Sequence record: PQ351811
Source: Shigella phage SSG23
Direction: 5' to 3' (one strand)
DNA length: 64,000 nucleotides
The notes under the pieces are model-generated. The model did not search any database and was not told the origin of the DNA. It saw nothing but the letters and a program-made list of their open reading frames with translations. A program made the translations under genes and the position numbers. Below, one piece after another: positions 3,298 to 60,928 of the stretch. Each line of letters begins with the position of its first letter. Positions within the stretch are counted from its first letter, which is position 1.

Positions 3298-3326
3298 TTG
3301 ACGCGGGGAGAAATCCCCGTTATACT
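3298..3326 (+). promoter_or_regulatory. sigma70-like early promoter with spacer hairpin (PeSL-like)
   Basis: TTGACG, 17-nt spacer containing CGGGGA-GAAA-TCCCCG hairpin, TATACT. Confidence 0.6.
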
Positions 3327-53928: not shown

Positions 53929-54197
53929 TGAAAATAACCATTATTCAATTATGGTCGGCTACCAGTGAAAACTACGCAGTAGCCGTAGATTATTACGGTT
54001 TACAATATCTCTATGATGAAGCGAGCGCATCATGGCTTCCGGTGCAAGAAAATAGCGATATCTCAAGACCTGCTACTGTATTCGATCCGGGCGTTGTCTT
54101 TATCAATATTGACGAGACAGTAGCAAAACTGCGTAAGAAAGCAATCAATAAGAAAAAGGTGATGTGGGATGAAAGAATATTTGAAACTATTGCGTGA
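53928..54197 (+). CDS. hypothetical protein
   Basis: 89-aa ORF between frd and td. Confidence 0.4.
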   Translation: MKITIIQLWSATSENYAVAVDYYGLQYLYDEASASWLPVQENSDISRPATVFDPGVVFINIDETVAKLRKKAINKKKVMWDERIFETIA

Positions 54198-55401
54198 TGT
54201 TCTTGATAATGGCTGGCCTCGTGAAGACCGAACGGGGGTAGGTACGCTCTCTAAATTCGGCGCAGAGATGCGAATTGACTTAAGCAAGGGTTTCCCCTTA
54301 CTGACAACTAAAAAGATGGCTACAGCCTCTGTAATTGGCGAGTTGCTATGGTTTATGGAAGGGTCGCTGGACCGCCGTCGCTTACAGGAAATTACACGCG
54401 GTAAATTCGATGACGAAGCCTTTGATATTTGGCGCGGTAACTGTCTTGATATGAAAGAAAAGAATCCTTTGCGATTCAACGGCTATAATGTTGGCAATAT
54501 GTATGGTATGGCGTGGCGACGCAAGCCGATTCATCCACACGGTGAAATCAAAATTAAGCGCGTTAAGAGCAAATATACACATACATTTAAGCACCCGTGG
54601 GTAGAAGACTTTACGCCAACCAACGACACAGAAGACCGTTTATGTGCTATCTGGCGTGGTATGCGTTATGAAGAGTTTGATTCTGAATATAATCAATTCT
54701 TAGTAGCAGACCACTGGAAGACTCAATCCAATTTTGTTAATGATGCATACTGCTTGTGGGGATTCCAGGAATGGGTAGATGATGGTTATTTCGGTTATCT
54801 GCTTGATAGTGATTATCTGGGTGGGGATATGTTCGCACCGGATACCACAATCTTTGTTAATATGGACGTAGACACATCAAGCCCTAAAGACGATGAAGAA
54901 TATATCTATCGCCCGAAGATTTGGGAAGACCAGTTACAAAACGTGATTGAACAAATTAAAAATAATCCAACGGATCGCCGGATCATTATTGACTCATGGA
55001 ACGTACAAGGAACACATAATGCTGTATTAGGTGTATGTCATCCTTTCGTGCAATTCTACGTCAATGAAGGTAAACTGTCCTGTATGTGGTTTCAGCGAAG
55101 CGTAGACAGCTTTTTGGGCTTGCCCTTTAACGTCGCCAGCTATGCGCTGTTAACTCACATCATAGCGAAAATGTGCGACCTTGAGGTTGGCGAACTGATT
55201 TTCTCCGGCGGAGATACTCACATTTACAAAAACCACTTTGACCAAGTTATGGAGCAATTAAACCGTGTTCCGTTTGATAAACCAACAATTGAGTTGCCGG
55301 AATTTAAATCTTTAGATGAGGTATTGACAAAAACTCCGAAAGACTTTAAAATTCACAACTATCAAAGCCACCCGGCAATCACCGCTCAAATGGCAGTATA
55401 A
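54169..55401 (+). CDS. td: thymidylate synthase with a large internal insertion
   Basis: ThyA motifs (DRTGVGT, GELLWF, DSWNV, GVCHPFVQFYV, FQRSVDSFLGLPFNVASYALL, GGDTHIY); 410 aa versus about 264-286 for E. coli and T4. Confidence 0.85.
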   Translation: MKEYLKLLRDVLDNGWPREDRTGVGTLSKFGAEMRIDLSKGFPLLTTKKMATASVIGELLWFMEGSLDRRRLQEITRGKFDDEAFDIWRGNCLDMKEKNPLRFNGYNVGNMYGMAWRRKPIHPHGEIKIKRVKSKYTHTFKHPWVEDFTPTNDTEDRLCAIWRGMRYEEFDSEYNQFLVADHWKTQSNFVNDAYCLWGFQEWVDDGYFGYLLDSDYLGGDMFAPDTTIFVNMDVDTSSPKDDEEYIYRPKIWEDQLQNVIEQIKNNPTDRRIIIDSWNVQGTHNAVLGVCHPFVQFYVNEGKLSCMWFQRSVDSFLGLPFNVASYALLTHIIAKMCDLEVGELIFSGGDTHIYKNHFDQVMEQLNRVPFDKPTIELPEFKSLDEVLTKTPKDFKIHNYQSHPAITAQMAV

Positions 55402-55407
55402 ACAAAT

Positions 55408-55425
55408 GCGGGGAGAAATCCCCGC
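55408..55425 (+). other. GAAA-tetraloop stem-loop after td
   Basis: GCGGGGA-GAAA-TCCCCGC; same hairpin as in the promoter spacers at 3304 and 58010, here without a -35 element. Confidence 0.5.
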
Positions 55426-55437
55426 AAGGAGTATCAA

Positions 55438-55740
55438 ATGAAAATATGCCGCGTTGTAAACAAGTACAATAGCGATTTTGATGTTAATATTCAGCGTGGT
55501 ACTATGTGGGGAAATCCATACACCGCCAAAGAATACGGACGAGAGAAAGCTATTGCATTATACAAAGAGTGGTTGTATAATAAGATTCGAAATGGTGAGA
55601 TAACACGAGCGCATTTAGAAGTATTAAGACATATGCGCTTAGGTTGTACTTGCTACCCTAAGAAATGCCACGGTGAAGTATTGGCGGATCTCGTTAATAG
55701 AGTTTTCGGCGATACTCCAGAAAATACGCTTGATATATGA
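55438..55740 (+). CDS. DUF4326-like protein
   Basis: WGNPY and LGCTCYPKKCHGEVL resemble the DUF4326 signature; family assignment is from memory. Confidence 0.4.
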   Translation: MKICRVVNKYNSDFDVNIQRGTMWGNPYTAKEYGREKAIALYKEWLYNKIRNGEITRAHLEVLRHMRLGCTCYPKKCHGEVLADLVNRVFGDTPENTLDI

Positions 55741-55751
55741 AGTGAGGTAAT

Positions 55752-57995
55752 ATGATTAAAAATGTTGTTAAGTCTTCCGGTCTGACTGTTCCGTTTGAAA
55801 AAGAAAAAGTAATGAAAATTCTGGAAGCGGCAGCCGAAGGTCATAACGTTGATCCATATGAATTGTTTGATATGGTTGAACCGCTTCTGACAGAAGGTAT
55901 GTCTACCAACGATATCCAGAAAGTATTGATTAAGGTCGCCGCAGATAACATTACTGTAGAAACACCTGATTATCAATATGTAGCAAGTAACCTTGCAATG
56001 TTCGCGCTTCGTAAATCAGTATATGGTCAATTCCAACCGATTGATTTTTACAGCCATATTGAGCGTAATATTGCAACCGGAAAATATGATCGCGAAATTC
56101 TGCAAAAGTATTCCCGTGAAGAAGTGGAATATCTGGAGAAATTCATCGATCATAAACTTGATTTTAAAATGACCTATGCTGGTGCGATGCAGTTAAAAGA
56201 GAAATATCTTGTTCAGGATCGCAGCACTAAGAAAATCATTGAAACACCGCAATTTGCGTATATGCTGATCGGTATGTGCTTACATCAAGAAGAGACAGAA
56301 AATCGACTTGAACATGTGATTGATTTTTATAATGCTGTTGCGAATAAGCAAATTTCTCTGCCTACTCCGATTATGGCGGGTGTGCGTACCCCGACACGAC
56401 AATTTAGTTCGTGTGTGGTGATTGAAAGTGATGACTCATTGCAGGGCATCAATGAAACAGCAAATGCAATCATCAAGTATATTAGTAAGCGTGCTGGTAT
56501 CGGCATCAATGCTGGTATGATTCGCGCGGAAGGATCTAAGATCGGGCATGGTGAAGTTCGTCATACTGGCGTTATCCCGTTCTGGAAACATTTTCAGACT
56601 GCCGTTAAGTCATGTTCACAAGGCGGTATTCGTGGCGGGGCAGCGACTCTCTATTACCCAATGTGGCATTTAGAGTTTGAAAGTCTTATTGTGTTGAAGA
56701 ACAACAAAGGGGTAGAAGATAACCGCATCCGTCATCTTGATTACGGCGTACAGATTAATAACCTGATGGTAGAGCGATTCCTTAAACGCGATTACATTAC
56801 TCTGTTTAGTCCAGATGTTGCGGGTGGCTTGTTGTGGGATCTGTACTTCCGAGATGAGGAAGGATTCCGCCAGCTTTACGAAAAACTGGAAAAAGATCCG
56901 AGTGTGCGTAAAACTCGTGTTAAAGCCGAAGACCTGTTTTTAGCGGTGGCAATTGAACGTTTTAACACTGGTCGAATCTATCCAGCGTTCACAGACAACA
57001 TGAACAATCACGGGGCGTTTATTCGTAATGTAGCACCGATTAAACAATCTAACCTGTGTTGTGAAATTGCTCTGCCGACAAAACCGATGGGTCGTGATGA
57101 TTCAGAGATCAGCCTATGCACTTTGGCAGCATATGTTTTAGGTAATTTCGATATCGAAAACATGGAAGAAGTAGAACGCATTGCTATGGTTATGGTGCGT
57201 GCGCTTGACAACTTGTTAGATTATCAGGATTATCCTGTAAAACAAGCACTGACAGCCAAAAAACGTCGCTCTCTGGGTGTTGGCGTGACTAACTTTGCAT
57301 CATATCTGGCGGATAATTTCTTCACATATGAAGACGCTAACGAGTTTACGCATAAAACGTTTGAACGCTTGCAATATGCTCTGATTAAGGCTAGTGTGCA
57401 ACTGGCTAAAGAGAAGGGTGCTTGCGAACTGATGCACGAAACACGTTATGGTCGCGGTGAACTTCCTATTGACTGGTACAAAAAGACAGTAGATGAACTG
57501 GTTGATCCGGTGTATGAGATGGATTGGGAAGAACTGCGCGAAGACCTGAAAAAATATGGCATTCGTAACAGTACGCTTTCGGCGCTGATGCCTTGTGAGT
57601 CGTCTTCTCAGGTGTCTAACAGCACAAACGGTATTGAACCGCCTCGCGGGATTGTATCGGTTAAAGGATCAAAGGAAGGACAATTTAATCAGGTTATTCC
57701 GAACGTAGAGAATAATGCTGATGTTATTGACCTGCTTTGGACACTGATCAAGAAAGGTAACAAGCCTTATCTGACACTGGCAGCGATCATGCAGAAGTTT
57801 GTAGATCAGGCGATTAGTTCCAATACATCCTACGATCCAAGCACTTATAAGACTGGTAAAGTCGATATTGCTGATGTATTAGATGATATGTTGTTTGCTC
57901 AATATTACGGCCTCAAGACACTGTATTACGCTAACGTGCGTGATGGTGCTGATGGTACGGAAGACGCTAGCGAATGTTCATCTTGCAAACTGTAA
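55752..57995 (+). CDS. nrdA: ribonucleotide reductase large subunit NrdA (class Ia)
   Basis: N-terminal ATP-cone, catalytic NLCCEI and C-terminal CSSCKL tail; 747 aa. Confidence 0.95.
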   Translation: MIKNVVKSSGLTVPFEKEKVMKILEAAAEGHNVDPYELFDMVEPLLTEGMSTNDIQKVLIKVAADNITVETPDYQYVASNLAMFALRKSVYGQFQPIDFYSHIERNIATGKYDREILQKYSREEVEYLEKFIDHKLDFKMTYAGAMQLKEKYLVQDRSTKKIIETPQFAYMLIGMCLHQEETENRLEHVIDFYNAVANKQISLPTPIMAGVRTPTRQFSSCVVIESDDSLQGINETANAIIKYISKRAGIGINAGMIRAEGSKIGHGEVRHTGVIPFWKHFQTAVKSCSQGGIRGGAATLYYPMWHLEFESLIVLKNNKGVEDNRIRHLDYGVQINNLMVERFLKRDYITLFSPDVAGGLLWDLYFRDEEGFRQLYEKLEKDPSVRKTRVKAEDLFLAVAIERFNTGRIYPAFTDNMNNHGAFIRNVAPIKQSNLCCEIALPTKPMGRDDSEISLCTLAAYVLGNFDIENMEEVERIAMVMVRALDNLLDYQDYPVKQALTAKKRRSLGVGVTNFASYLADNFFTYEDANEFTHKTFERLQYALIKASVQLAKEKGACELMHETRYGRGELPIDWYKKTVDELVDPVYEMDWEELREDLKKYGIRNSTLSALMPCESSSQVSNSTNGIEPPRGIVSVKGSKEGQFNQVIPNVENNADVIDLLWTLIKKGNKPYLTLAAIMQKFVDQAISSNTSYDPSTYKTGKVDIADVLDDMLFAQYYGLKTLYYANVRDGADGTEDASECSSCKL

Positions 57996-58003
57996 AATAA
58001 GTG

Positions 58004-58032
58004 TTGACGCGGGGAGAAATCCCCGCTATAAT
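58004..58032 (+). promoter_or_regulatory. PeSL-like promoter-hairpin cassette
   Basis: TTGACG, 17-nt spacer with CGGGGA-GAAA-TCCCCG hairpin, TATAAT; near-identical to the 3298 copy. Confidence 0.65.
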
Positions 58033-58063
58033 ACAACCATCAAAAACAAATGAGGATTTTATT

Positions 58064-58231
58064 ATGACCAAATTAAAATGTGTTGCTGTAGATTTTGAGC
58101 TAGCTGATAGCTTTGTTGTCGGTGATGAATATGATGCTCGACATGATGGGACTTGCTACTACGTTAAGGATGAATACGGCGTAGAATGGGCTATTCTTCC
58201 TGATGATAAATGTTTTGAGGTTGTCGGATAA
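58064..58231 (+). CDS. hypothetical small protein
   Basis: ORF downstream of promoter-hairpin at 58004. Confidence 0.4.
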   Translation: MTKLKCVAVDFELADSFVVGDEYDARHDGTCYYVKDEYGVEWAILPDDKCFEVVG

Positions 58232-58404
58232 TGGCTACTGTATGGTTATTGATTGCAATAAGCAATTCAATGTATAATTACGGAAATATGTCAAGCATTG
58301 AATTTGCCACAAAGCAGGATTGCGTTAAAGCTCGCGAGATTATCCGCGAAGACAATAAACGCTTTATGAATCTGTATTGCATTGAAAAGCAGAAGGTGAA
58401 CTAA
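58231..58404 (+). CDS. hypothetical small protein (tandem paralog 1)
   Basis: 57 aa starting MATVWLLIAIS; TAATG junctions on both sides. Confidence 0.3.
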   Translation: MATVWLLIAISNSMYNYGNMSSIEFATKQDCVKAREIIREDNKRFMNLYCIEKQKVN

Positions 58405-58571
58405 TGGCTACATTATGGTTATTGCTTTCCGTTAGTGTCGGCGTATATAATAAAGGAACTGTTACCAGCGTAGAGTTTTCATCACATCAAAGTTGTTTTG
58501 AAGCCATGCAGGAATTGCAACAGGATAGCGAAATAAACAGAAATACTAAGTTCTTTTGTGTTAAAAAGTGA
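58404..58571 (+). CDS. hypothetical small protein (tandem paralog 2)
   Basis: 55 aa starting MATLWLLLSVS; similar layout to 58231..58404 (hydrophobic N-terminus, SIEF/SVEF, C-terminal Cys). Confidence 0.3.
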   Translation: MATLWLLLSVSVGVYNKGTVTSVEFSSHQSCFEAMQELQQDSEINRNTKFFCVKK

Positions 58572-58640
58572 TAGTGAGGTGAATTAATCCTTCTTCTGGA
58601 TACCTGATAAATAATGGTATACAGAAAAGAGGATTTATTC

Positions 58641-59288
58641 ATGAACTTACAAAAACTACACGACGCAATCATAGAAAAAGCGAAGATAAGAGGAACCGTT
58701 GAAGGATATAAGGAAACACATCATATTTTACCGCGATCTATGGGTGGCGGTGATGAAGTCGATAACCTGATTGATTTGACAGCCAAAGAACATTTTGTGA
58801 TTCATCACCTGCTAGCAAAAATTCATGGTGGACCTATGGCGCAAGCATTTGGTATGATGTGTTTGGCAAAAAATGCTAAGACCAATAAAAGAGATTATGT
58901 TGTTTCGTCTAGGGTATATGAACAAGCTAGGGTACTGATATCTGAACAAAGAAAGGGTAAGCCTATGAAAGAAGAAACGCGAAGAAAGATTAGCGAATCT
59001 TCGAAAGGTGTATTGAAATCAGAAGAGACAAAAGCTAAAATGCGTAAACCAAAAACAAAGGAGCACGCGTTAAACATTTCAAAAGCTAGAATGGGAAGTA
59101 AAAATCCTATGTTTGGGAAACCATCGCCAACTAAAGGAATACCACATAGCGAGGAAATGAGAAAGCTGATTGCACAAAGGACAAAGGAAGCAACAATGGC
59201 AGATCCTTGTCCGCATTGCGGTAAAATTACCAATAAAGGCAATGCTCTACGATGGCACTTTGATAACTGCAAAATGAGGAATATGTGA
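58641..59288 (+). CDS. HNH homing endonuclease (MobE-like, free-standing)
   Basis: HNH core (ETHHILPRSMGGGDEVDNLIDLTAKEH), NUMOD3-like repeats (ETRRKISESSKG, EHALNISKARMG), C-terminal CPHCG; sits between nrdA and nrdB like T4 mobE. Confidence 0.75.
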   Translation: MNLQKLHDAIIEKAKIRGTVEGYKETHHILPRSMGGGDEVDNLIDLTAKEHFVIHHLLAKIHGGPMAQAFGMMCLAKNAKTNKRDYVVSSRVYEQARVLISEQRKGKPMKEETRRKISESSKGVLKSEETKAKMRKPKTKEHALNISKARMGSKNPMFGKPSPTKGIPHSEEMRKLIAQRTKEATMADPCPHCGKITNKGNALRWHFDNCKMRNM

Positions 59289-60455
59289 ATGGGAAATACG
59301 GTATTTAATCGTGAACATGTTGATATTATGAATGAACCGATGTTTCTGGGTAGCGGTTTAGGTATCGCTCGTTATGACATTCAGCGTCATCAAGTATTTG
59401 AAGAACTAATTGAAAAATCTCTGTCATTTTTCTGGCGTCCAGAAGAGATTTCACTTGCAACTGACCGCATTCAATATCTGAATATGGGCGATGTTGAAAA
59501 ACGTTTCTTTACAGAAAACTTGAAGTATCAGACATTACTTGATTCTATTCAAGGTCGCGCACCATCCGCAGCATTTGGTCCAATTGTATCTGATCCGACT
59601 CTCGATACATGGTTGCAAACATGGACATTCAGCGAGACAATTCATAGCCGCAGTTATACTCACATTATGCGTAACTGTTTCATTGATCCGGCTAGTGAGT
59701 TTGACCAGATCATCGATAACCCTGCTATCATGAAGCGAGCGGAATCTATCGGGCAATATTATGATGATGTTCTTTATTGGATTCGTAAGTATGAGAATGC
59801 AAAAGAAGATCTCCGCTATTGGGAAGAACGAGACGACCAGACAGCATTAGATGATGCAAGAAGAGTTTTTGAAGATACAAAACGAGATCTGATGGCGTCG
59901 ATTTATCTGTGTGCACACTGCGTTAATGCACTGGAAGCAATCCGTTTTTATGTATCCTTTGCATGTACTTTCAGCTTTGCCGAACGTGGTTTACTGGAAG
60001 GTAACGCGAAGATCATGAAATTTATTGCGCGTGATGAACAACTTCACTTAAAAGGTACACAATACATTATTCGTCAATGGCAAACGGGGGCTGACGGTGA
60101 TGAGTGGAAACAGATTGCGGAAGAACTTGAAGACGAAGCAACGAAAATCTTTCTGGATGTTGTCGAGCAAGAAAAAGAATGGGTAGACCACCTATTCGCA
60201 ATGGGGGCAATTCCTAACCTGTCACCGGAAATTCTGAAAACCTATGTAGAATACCTGGCAGATTCCCGTATGCGTGCTGCCGGACTGAAAAGCCCGTTTA
60301 GTGTTCGTCGTCATCCTTTACCGTGGATGCGTAAGTGGTTAAACTCTGACGAAGTTCAAAACGCGGCGCAAGAAGTAGAGATCATGTATCTGGTATCTCA
60401 GGTTAATACCGATTTAACAGACGACGACTACAACCGATTCGGGAAATATCTATGA
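59289..60455 (+). CDS. nrdB: ribonucleotide reductase small subunit NrdB (class Ia)
   Basis: Di-iron/tyrosyl radical motifs (FSETIHSRSYTHI, ASIYLCAHCVNALEAIRFYVSFA, ARDEQLH); uninterrupted 388-aa ORF. Confidence 0.95.
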   Translation: MGNTVFNREHVDIMNEPMFLGSGLGIARYDIQRHQVFEELIEKSLSFFWRPEEISLATDRIQYLNMGDVEKRFFTENLKYQTLLDSIQGRAPSAAFGPIVSDPTLDTWLQTWTFSETIHSRSYTHIMRNCFIDPASEFDQIIDNPAIMKRAESIGQYYDDVLYWIRKYENAKEDLRYWEERDDQTALDDARRVFEDTKRDLMASIYLCAHCVNALEAIRFYVSFACTFSFAERGLLEGNAKIMKFIARDEQLHLKGTQYIIRQWQTGADGDEWKQIAEELEDEATKIFLDVVEQEKEWVDHLFAMGAIPNLSPEILKTYVEYLADSRMRAAGLKSPFSVRRHPLPWMRKWLNSDEVQNAAQEVEIMYLVSQVNTDLTDDDYNRFGKYL

Positions 60456-60928
60456 TATATTTTGTCGATTTAGATTTTACGATCACAGATCCAACGCATC
60501 GACTAGCTAAGATGCCAACCGAAAATCTTGATAAAGTCGAGTCATGGATCGAATATAACAAGGCATGTGGGGGAGATTCCCCCATTTACGATGTAATTCG
60601 TGTTATCAATGCTCTTTCTGACAACGGTCATTTGATTTACATCCTCACCGGACGAAGTTCACATGCTTACATAGAAACGGTGGAATGGCTGATCGCTAAT
60701 GATGTGTGTTTCGATAAAATCTTTATGAGAGGTCGCAATGATTCCCGTAAAGACTATCACATCAAATTAGAGGTAATTAAATCCTTTGATAAAGATGAAG
60801 TTGTCGGAGTCTTTGAGGATAACCCGGAAGTGATTAAAGTTCTCAGAGAAAACGGCTATCGTGTCTTTGACGTAGGAAATCACAAAGACAAGACACGAGC
60901 GGATATTGCAAATCACGGTCATGATTAA
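60452..60928 (+). CDS. HAD-superfamily phosphatase-like protein
   Basis: N-terminal FVDLDFTIT (HAD motif I, DxDxT), ILTGR (motif II-like) and FEDN near C-terminus. Confidence 0.5.
   Translation: MIYFVDLDFTITDPTHRLAKMPTENLDKVESWIEYNKACGGDSPIYDVIRVINALSDNGHLIYILTGRSSHAYIETVEWLIANDVCFDKIFMRGRNDSRKDYHIKLEVIKSFDKDEVVGVFEDNPEVIKVLRENGYRVFDVGNHKDKTRADIANHGHD

Follow-up and report, generated by a model that had tools for sequence, protein, structure and literature searches.

Phages of the RB49 and phi1 type contain a composite motif, the promoter-early stem-loop or PeSL, in which an early promoter is combined with a terminator (PMC2839356). Promoter and terminator activities have been tested and shown in vivo for PeSLs other than the one described here (Arbiol et al. 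2010, PMC2839356). It has also been proposed that ORFan cassettes are inserted and excised by way of these elements (PMC2839356; Comeau et al. 2014, PMC4122927); the nrdA–nrdB locus is not mentioned in these two papers as searched. Small early ORFans downstream of PeSL promoters have been described in RB49-type phages.

In phage T4, the interval between nrdA and nrdB lies at the same chromosomal position as the one considered below and also carries small ORFs and an HNH-family homing endonuclease gene, its contents being mobE and nrdB.1 only. The T4 nrdB.1 product was considered as a positional homologue of the proteins described here and rejected (hhalign probability of 0.2%).

The DNA analysed is a stretch of 64,000 nucleotides from Shigella phage SSG23 (record PQ351811), hereafter the window. 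Between its nrdA and nrdB genes are two tandem micro-genes, termed A and B, whose products belong to protein family phrog_5579. The reading favoured here, at a probability of roughly 0.55, is that A and B are translationally coupled, PeSL-driven early accessory genes, which would encode soluble, probably dimeric mini-proteins of this family that bind a protein target.

The nrdA–nrdB interval and its PeSL element

The ∼1-kb stretch around the micro-gene pair is 100% identical in Shigella phage SFHK24, and it is 95–99% identical to RB49, Phi1, GEC-3S, ECD7 and ∼55 other Krischvirus genomes. By these matches, the genome that carries the pair is a Krischvirus, i.e. an RB49-like T4-type phage of the Straboviridae. 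The gene order is td, a DUF4326 gene, nrdA, three micro-genes, an HNH homing endonuclease gene, nrdB and a HAD_PNKP phosphatase gene; coordinates are given in Table 1. An earlier note, made from the letters of the window, had placed the pair between nrdA and the HNH gene. The placement is correct, but nrdA is separated from the pair by a third micro-gene (58064–58231), which is joined to A by a TAATG overlap like that between A and B. This first micro-gene is unrelated to A and B, is preceded by a Shine-Dalgarno sequence, GAGGA, at 58052–58056, and is an annotated CDS in both RB49 and SFHK24.

Table 1. Features of the nrdA–nrdB region, numbered from the first letter of the window
Feature	Position	Strand	Evidence or remark
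nrdA, upstream core gene	55752..57995	+	stop codon 57993-57995
PeSL (promoter-early stem-loop)	57991..58032	+	-35 TTGACG, hairpin GCGGGGAGAAATCCCCGC, -10 TATAAT
First micro-gene, 55 aa, homologue of RB49p233	58064..58231	+	phrog_16302 match, E 1.5e-41
Paralogue A, 57 aa, = RB49p232	58231..58404	+	ORF listing; phrog_5579 match
Paralogue B, 55 aa, = RB49p231	58404..58571	+	ORF listing; phrog_5579 match
HNH + NUMOD3 homing endonuclease gene	58614..59288	+	Pfam NUMOD3 E 3.7e-9; phrog_655 'homing endonuclease' E 5e-56
nrdB, downstream core gene	59289..60455	+
Stand-alone HAD_PNKP-type phosphatase gene, 158 aa	60452..60928	+	Pfam HAD_PNKP E 1.6e-13

The interval between nrdA and nrdB is a variable stretch. 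The HNH + NUMOD3 gene is an insertion between B and nrdB that is absent in RB49, where nrdB begins 16 nt past B, and the same junction is occupied in phages G5211 and G37-3 by an unrelated HNH_3 gene. The true start of the HNH + NUMOD3 gene is likely to be the ATG at 58641, and the gene is annotated with a length of 648 nt in PTE-Eco09 and phiS. The start of the phosphatase gene, two genes downstream of B, overlaps the stop codon of nrdB.

A 42-nt element at 57991–58032, TGTAAAATAAGTGTTGACGCGGGGAGAAATCCCCGCTATAAT, includes the nrdA stop codon. It displays a -35 box, TTGACG (58004–58009), and a -10 box, TATAAT (58027–58032), with a spacer of 17 nt, and a promoter scan matches 11 of 12 positions. 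A perfect GC hairpin, GCGGGGAGAAATCCCCGC, lies between the two boxes at 58009–58026; three copies of this hairpin are found in the window, compared with 0.02 expected by chance. Thus sigma-70 boxes and a stem-loop are found together between the nrdA stop codon and the Shine-Dalgarno sequence and ATG (58064) of the first micro-gene, and by sequence and position the element is a PeSL of the RB49/phi1 type.

In phage Delraymugoa, a DNA methyltransferase gene is found between nrdA and the micro-genes and is flanked by two direct copies of the 42-nt element. These direct repeats indicate that this PeSL is a live recombination site. The PeSL + ORFan cassettes of RB49 and phi1 have cargo flanked by two PeSLs, whereas the micro-gene trio has the upstream one only; a second PeSL is not found in the window between B and the HNH gene or nrdB. 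Therefore the trio is not a complete, excisable two-PeSL cassette. Read from this promoter, A and B would be early genes, and nrdB is probably co-transcribed with them and with the first micro-gene.

The paralogous pair and the phrog_5579 family

The two tandem ORFs, of 57 and 55 aa, are in the ORF listing exactly where the earlier note had located them. The predicted product of A is MATVWLLIAISNSMYNYGNMSSIEFATKQDCVKAREIIREDNKRFMNLYCIEKQKVN and that of B is MATLWLLLSVSVGVYNKGTVTSVEFSSHQSCFEAMQELQQDSEINRNTKFFCVKK. As the note had also seen, the micro-genes are joined by TAATG stop/start overlaps, which are at 58229–58233 and 58402–58406; at both junctions a single A residue is common to the upstream stop codon and the following ATG. 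Shine-Dalgarno-like sequences are present 7–10 nt upstream of the starts, GAGG (58217–58220) before A and GAAGG (58392–58396) before B. The shared features listed in the note, MAT(V/L)WLL, SIEF/SVEF and a C-terminal Cys, are all common to the two proteins. The C-terminal Cys is C50 in A and C52 in B; a second shared Cys, C31, had been overlooked.

BLASTP aligns the whole of A with the whole of B (36% identical and 73% positive positions, E 3e-16), a resemblance far beyond chance. Both match the 52-position phrog_5579 HMM from end to end, A with E 2e-23 (residues 2–53 on profile positions 1–52) and B with E 3.6e-24 (residues 2–55 on the same profile positions). Among 11–13 Krischvirus genomes fetched for an analysis of selection, both reading frames are intact. 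A has a pN/pS ratio of 0.067 and B one of 0.20, and third codon positions account for 9 of the 14 variable sites in A and 19 of the 34 in B. Judged from these comparative data, A and B are genuine protein-coding genes under purifying selection. They are already annotated as hypothetical proteins, as CDSs in SFHK24 and as RB49p232 and RB49p231 in RB49, and the same two CDSs appear in ∼55 other Krischvirus records. The genes and their family are already catalogued.

Homologues were sought with a HMMER profile made from A, B and close variants in an exhaustive search of 1.84 billion cluster representatives. This yielded 48 matches at E <= 1e-3, of which 45 are stand-alone proteins of 44–113 aa, all except three of them in the range of 51–72 aa (42/45). 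The other three matches (P0016, P0040 and P0056) were set aside as long tandem-repeat proteins of eukaryotes. The 113-aa member (P0042) is extended at its C-terminus, and no family match to this extension was informative. A 45-sequence alignment was assembled from A and B, 40 HMMER matches and three close variants of B. The mean column identity is 32%. All aligned sequences, A and B among them, have F25, C31 and C50 (A numbering) as invariant residues, nearly all have L7, and the number of Cys residues is exactly two throughout. All 45 aligned sequences match phrog_5579. A and B belong to this family itself and display no feature that differs from it; PHROG assigns the family no function.

Diverged members were found by tblastn in Enterobacter phage SDFMU_EhYP (Autographiviridae; 56 aa, unannotated), in Escherichia phage Henu7 (Drexlerviridae; 51 aa, unannotated), in Pseudomonas phage Motto (Drexlerviridae) and in Erwinia jumbo phage Hallingskeid. 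At least three phage families thus have traceable members, with frame and motifs kept at 30–50% identity. The earlier note had named a lack of conserved reading frames in relatives as part of what would count against it; the frame is kept in distant phages. Traceable members are all in records of lytic phages or in phage-like contigs, and those that can be placed are always among small early or DNA-metabolism genes. The metagenomic contigs with homologues are mostly too short to give useful gene context. A word-indexed protein search and an IMG/VR scan returned only near-identical Krischvirus copies. With a strict degenerate DNA motif, no bacterial or prophage member was found in 185,579 bacterial and archaeal genomes; the 59 loci that matched are all chance matches in long Xanthomonadales and other ORFs. 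No member was found in T4 by tblastn at E <= 0.01. Searches of the literature for family members, locus tags, the PHROG identifier and Krischvirus transcriptomics found nothing relevant.

The nearest relative of A is a metagenomic protein (P0018) with 51% identity. Those of B are a protein from a phage-like contig (P0017, 50%) and one from a divergent Krischvirus-like contig (P0015, 47%). The family tree is weakly resolved, as the proteins are very short. Each copy is closer to outside members than to its neighbour, and the duplication is therefore old; A and B are a duplicated pair, as had been proposed, although not a recent one. The gene for the 47%-identical relative follows the same TAATG junction and lies directly upstream of an nrdB gene that is 91% identical to that of the window. 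Evolution is therefore much faster in the micro-protein than in its core neighbour.

Copy number varies. The first 21 nt of the A and B genes are identical at 19 positions, and phages G37-3 and FL20 have a single hybrid gene, which consists of the upstream region and first 11 nt of A followed by B. Sequence comparison places the origin of this hybrid in a crossover within the shared TATGGTTATTG near the 5′ ends. Another chimera of A and B, a metagenomic protein of 44 aa (P0014), reflects an out-of-register deletion, and phage JEP8 has a C31F change in copy A. Since G37-3 and FL20 carry one hybrid, one copy is dispensable in nature, which fits accessory and partly redundant genes. With the family not found in T4 and with natural phages that have a single copy, A and B are best read as accessory genes.

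Predicted fold and the hydrophobic N-terminus

AlphaFold2, run with the family alignment, gives models of A and B with mean pLDDT values of 89.7 and 93.1 and pTM values of 0.72 and 0.73, respectively. The model of A shows strands at residues 5–11 (beta1), 20–25 (beta2) and 46–52 (beta3), with a helix at 28–41 between the last two, and B has the same beta-beta-alpha-beta layout. The order of these elements along the chain, together with column statistics, suggests a split beta-alpha-beta fold in which beta1 is the central strand. In this arrangement C31, A34 and I38 would point inwards from the helix, towards which C50 of beta3 would face, such that the invariant Cys31 probably packs against the invariant Cys50/52. 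Hydrophobic residues make up at least 91% of both sets of alternating beta1 positions (4, 6, 8, 10 and 5, 7) in the family and 96% of position V/I51 in beta3. A single helix probably cannot bury the two faces of such a sheet, and this makes a dimer or a hydrophobic partner surface likely. Most likely, A and B would work as homodimers or as A/B heterodimers.

The earlier note took the hydrophobic N-terminal segments as a sign of small membrane-anchored or secreted proteins. Hydropathy, charge, N-terminal conservation and the predicted fold all speak against this. By the classical cut-off for a membrane helix, a 19-residue Kyte-Doolittle mean of at least 1.6, none of the proteins has one; the best 19-residue segment averages 0.61 in A and 1.07 in B and does not exceed 1.43 in any of the 45 members. 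The uncharged N-terminal run is 9–18 residues long in the 45 members, with a strongly hydrophobic core of only ∼7 residues (positions 4–10). Residues 1–8 contain no Lys or Arg in A, in B and in 41 of the 45 members, and several have D or E there. A positively charged n-region is therefore missing. The Cys residues of A and B are only at positions 31 and 50/52, and since there is no N-terminal Cys, a lipobox is ruled out.

The N-terminal block, together with a S-x-G-x-Y-N-x-G motif, is the best-conserved region of the family, with W5 in 40/45 members, L7 in 44/45, S11 in 40/44, G13 in 35/43, Y15 in 36/43, N16 in 40/43 and G18 in 40/45. In signal peptides the pattern is the reverse. In the AlphaFold2 models the segment forms strand beta1, with a pLDDT of 87–90 over its length. 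Hence the hydrophobic N-terminus (VWLLIAIS) is most likely a predicted strand of the sheet and neither a membrane anchor nor a signal peptide.

Alternative readings, possible role and comparison with known systems

Export is an alternative to a cytoplasmic role. The proteins might be tethered by the N-terminus or exported, with a periplasmic Cys-Cys disulfide, and might act at the cell envelope, for example to exclude superinfecting phages or to modulate a sensor there. Two invariant Cys residues in 55 residues, present in 45/45 members, lead one to expect a disulfide, which points to the periplasm, and because the pair is invariant a disulfide-bonded exported form keeps a residual chance. The hydrophobic VWLLIAIS segment also suits export, as does the fact that DUF1482/YebW, a protein of similar architecture, is labelled 'secreted protein' in some source databases. 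Yet the hydropathy maximum, the short core, the missing positive charge in 41/45 and the missing lipobox Cys all count against export, the N-terminus with its motif is the best-conserved part, which is atypical of signal peptides, and AlphaFold2 builds the segment into the sheet at high confidence. By the proposed strand order, beta2 and beta3 would not be adjacent if beta1 were removed. A match to the periplasmic domain of MzrA (PDB 4pwu) covers the whole family protein, with beta1 included, and lies on the folded domain and not on the MzrA transmembrane helix. Export is accordingly considered unlikely.

A different proposal makes use of the gene neighbourhood. The proteins could be small thiol- or metal-dependent cofactors, with a dimeric Cys4 Zn/Fe-S centre or a redox Cys pair, that serve ribonucleotide reductase or the HAD_PNKP phosphatase. 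The invariant Cys pair is compatible with this. Krischvirus has the genes between nrdA and nrdB, in the same unit as the HAD_PNKP phosphatase gene, and the 47%-identical member mentioned above is directly upstream of nrdB on its divergent contig. Henu7 and Motto (Tempevirinae) have one family member each, whose gene begins at the stop codon of a HAD_PNKP-type phosphatase gene; these phosphatases are 38–42% identical to the 158-aa one of the window (Henu7 gp30, 38%, E 1e-33). However, neither a HAD nor a nrd gene was found near the members in SDFMU_EhYP, in metagenomic contigs L080, L007 and L008 or in the Erwinia jumbo phage; the linkage is missing in the other four lineages examined. In addition, the proteins lack a CxxC motif, their fold is not that of thioredoxin or ferredoxin, and the same enzymes operate in T4 and in most T4-type phages, which do not have the family. 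The linkage to the HAD phosphatase is a lead and not evidence, and a cofactor role is regarded as rather improbable. A bolder form of the proposal is that phrog_5579 is a widespread, under-annotated group of two-cysteine mini-proteins which, as homodimers or A/B heterodimers with a shared Cys4 metal or redox centre, regulate the HAD_PNKP-type phosphatase with which they are coupled in translation in Tempevirinae, or ribonucleotide reductase in Krischvirus. This is a long shot; if true, it would provide a new small regulatory subunit and not a generic host-takeover ORFan. Lastly, A and B might be chance or decaying reading frames without a product. In favour of this are the very small size of the ORFs, the loss of copy A from two phages and the C31F change that copy A carries in one phage. 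Against this are the pN/pS values of 0.07 and 0.20, the concentration of changes at third codon positions, the Shine-Dalgarno sites and coupled starts, a frame and motifs conserved at 30–50% identity in at least three phage families, and confident fold predictions from the family alignment. On the comparative data, decay is effectively refuted and hardly credible.

The preferred reading, that of coupled early genes for soluble protein-binding mini-proteins, can be outlined as follows. Early in infection, host sigma-70 RNA polymerase would transcribe A and B from the PeSL downstream of nrdA, in one transcription unit that comprises the third micro-gene, A, B and nrdB. Each gene would provide a soluble protein of ∼55 residues, predicted to form one compact beta1-beta2-helix-beta3 domain. 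The proteins would be cytoplasmic, as homodimers or A/B heterodimers, and by analogy may act stoichiometrically, by binding there, in the early phase of infection, to a protein of the host or of the phage. Stoichiometric protein binding is the usual mode of action of small accessory early proteins in T4-type phages.

The pair alone matters little, as it is annotated as hypothetical proteins in dozens of Krischvirus genomes. What is added is a description at the level of the family, with ∼45 diverged clusters, one Phe and two Cys residues that do not vary and a beta-beta-alpha-beta fold predicted with confidence, and a correction of the tempting assumption that a hydrophobic N-terminus signifies a membrane protein. 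The natural one-copy recombinants can be used as ready-made deletion controls, and the homologues in Henu7 and SDFMU_EhYP had been missed by annotation. Should the link to the HAD phosphatase or ribonucleotide reductase be functional, the family would count as a small, hitherto unknown regulatory partner in phage nucleotide metabolism, although the present evidence for this is thin.

Searches for characterized relatives yielded little. Pfam (at E <= 1) and NCBIfam scans of A and B showed no match, and a Pfam scan of all 45 members gave scattered non-significant matches only. With the family profile, a sequence search of the PDB gave no match below E 0.49, and Foldseek against the PDB found nothing below E 1. 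Structural matches in BFVD are to uncharacterized small phage proteins only; among them is a DUF1482 phage protein (TM 0.72, rank 49). DUF1482, the family of E. coli YebW (PF07358), resembles phrog_5579 in size, in its hydrophobic N-terminal strand, in its second strand, in a helix that starts with 'T-x-x-Q-C' and in a Cys in the last strand. YebW differs in having extra Cys residues and a C-terminal extension. The DUF1482 Pfam model does not match A or B at E <= 1 and gives a non-significant match (E 0.11) to only one of the 45 members. An hhalign comparison of A2 with a 15-sequence YebW alignment gave E 0.0018 over 20 columns at a probability of 14.8%, and because the profile-profile probability is only 15%, homology to YebW is not claimed. 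The yebW literature consists of few papers, none of which gives a mechanism.

In terms of mode of action, small dimeric early inhibitor proteins of phages, such as phi29 p56, provide a parallel. Foldseek similarity to p56 is non-significant (E 3.7–5.7, TM 0.46–0.48) and there is no sequence similarity; the analogy is to mode of action only. Like the products proposed here for A and B, p56, an inhibitor of UDG, is very small (56 aa), is the product of an early gene, has a small sheet-plus-helix structure and binds a host enzyme as a dimer.

Recombination and gene content of the micro-gene block

Recombinants of the two phrog_5579 paralogues of the phage SSG23 window, A (57 aa) and B (55 aa), occur naturally. 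Phages G37-3 and FL20 have a single hybrid copy that arose by crossover within TATGGTTATTG, a sequence common to A and B. P0014, a metagenomic protein of 44 aa, is an out-of-register fusion of A residues 1–30 to B residues 42–55. It is devoid of most of the helix, as residues 31–41 of B, including the invariant Cys31, are gone.

Clear homologues are also present in Henu7 and SDFMU_EhYP, where the GenBank records do not annotate them; the Motto copy is annotated (Motto_70). In both Henu7 and Motto, a HAD_PNKP phosphatase gene, homologous to window positions 60452–60928 (38–42% identity), has its stop codon overlapped by the phrog_5579 copy.

The first micro-gene of the operon is unrelated to the A/B pair, and is truncated or split in JEP8 and FL20. 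In Pfam it gave only a weak, sub-threshold match, to DUF7244 (E 0.014). A sigma-70-like site falls within the 5′ part of A; it may either drive B and nrdB as an internal promoter or have arisen by chance.

Features of the window and of related loci
Feature	Location	Size	Remarks
Thymidylate synthase	window 54169–55401	410 aa	
DUF4326 gene	window 55438–55740	100 aa	between td and nrdA
First micro-gene	window 58064–58231	55 aa	phrog_16302; three Cys
Sigma-70-like site	window 58249–58278		TTGATT-18-TATAAT; 10/12 positions
HNH+NUMOD3 gene	window 58614–59288		B/nrdB junction
phrog_5579 homologue, SDFMU_EhYP	L005 2501–2671	56 aa	unannotated
phrog_5579 homologue, Henu7	L006 2501–2656	51 aa	unannotated
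Hybrid A/B copy, G37-3	L009 1501–1668		single copy
Hybrid A/B copy, FL20	L010 1501–1668		single copy
HNH_3 gene, G37-3	L009 1679–2218	179 aa	B/nrdB junction
HNH_3 gene, G5211	L011 1679–2218	179 aa	B/nrdB junction
PeSL copies, Delraymugoa	L085 392–433, 1287–1328		counterpart: window 57991–58032

PeSL copies and the region upstream of nrdA

In Escherichia phage Delraymugoa, a DNA methyltransferase gene is inserted between nrdA and the micro-genes and is flanked by direct repeats of the 42-nt promoter-early stem-loop (PeSL), the copies being 98% identical. The arrangement is a textbook example of a PeSL cassette and occupies exactly the locus of the window's PeSL. The PeSL hairpin, GCGGGGAGAAATCCCCGC, recurs identically at window positions 55408–55425, ahead of the DUF4326 gene, which is missing in RB49; unlike the PeSL, this copy has no −35/−10 boxes. 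A third copy (3303–3320) lies within a TTGACG...TATACT promoter-like site.

The Pfam match to the thymidylate synthase is split into two stretches, residues 254–410 corresponding to profile positions 110–266. This pattern implies a putative insertion of ∼130 residues mid-enzyme. The gene is of equal length in RB49 and the window.

Endonuclease genes between B and nrdB

The B/nrdB junction is a hotspot for homing endonucleases. It is empty in RB49 and is occupied in the window by an HNH+NUMOD3 gene, whose true start is probably 58641, giving 215 aa. The HNH_3 gene of G5211 and G37-3 is unrelated to it. In T4, mobE likewise sits between nrdA and nrdB, a parallel to the endonucleases of this junction.
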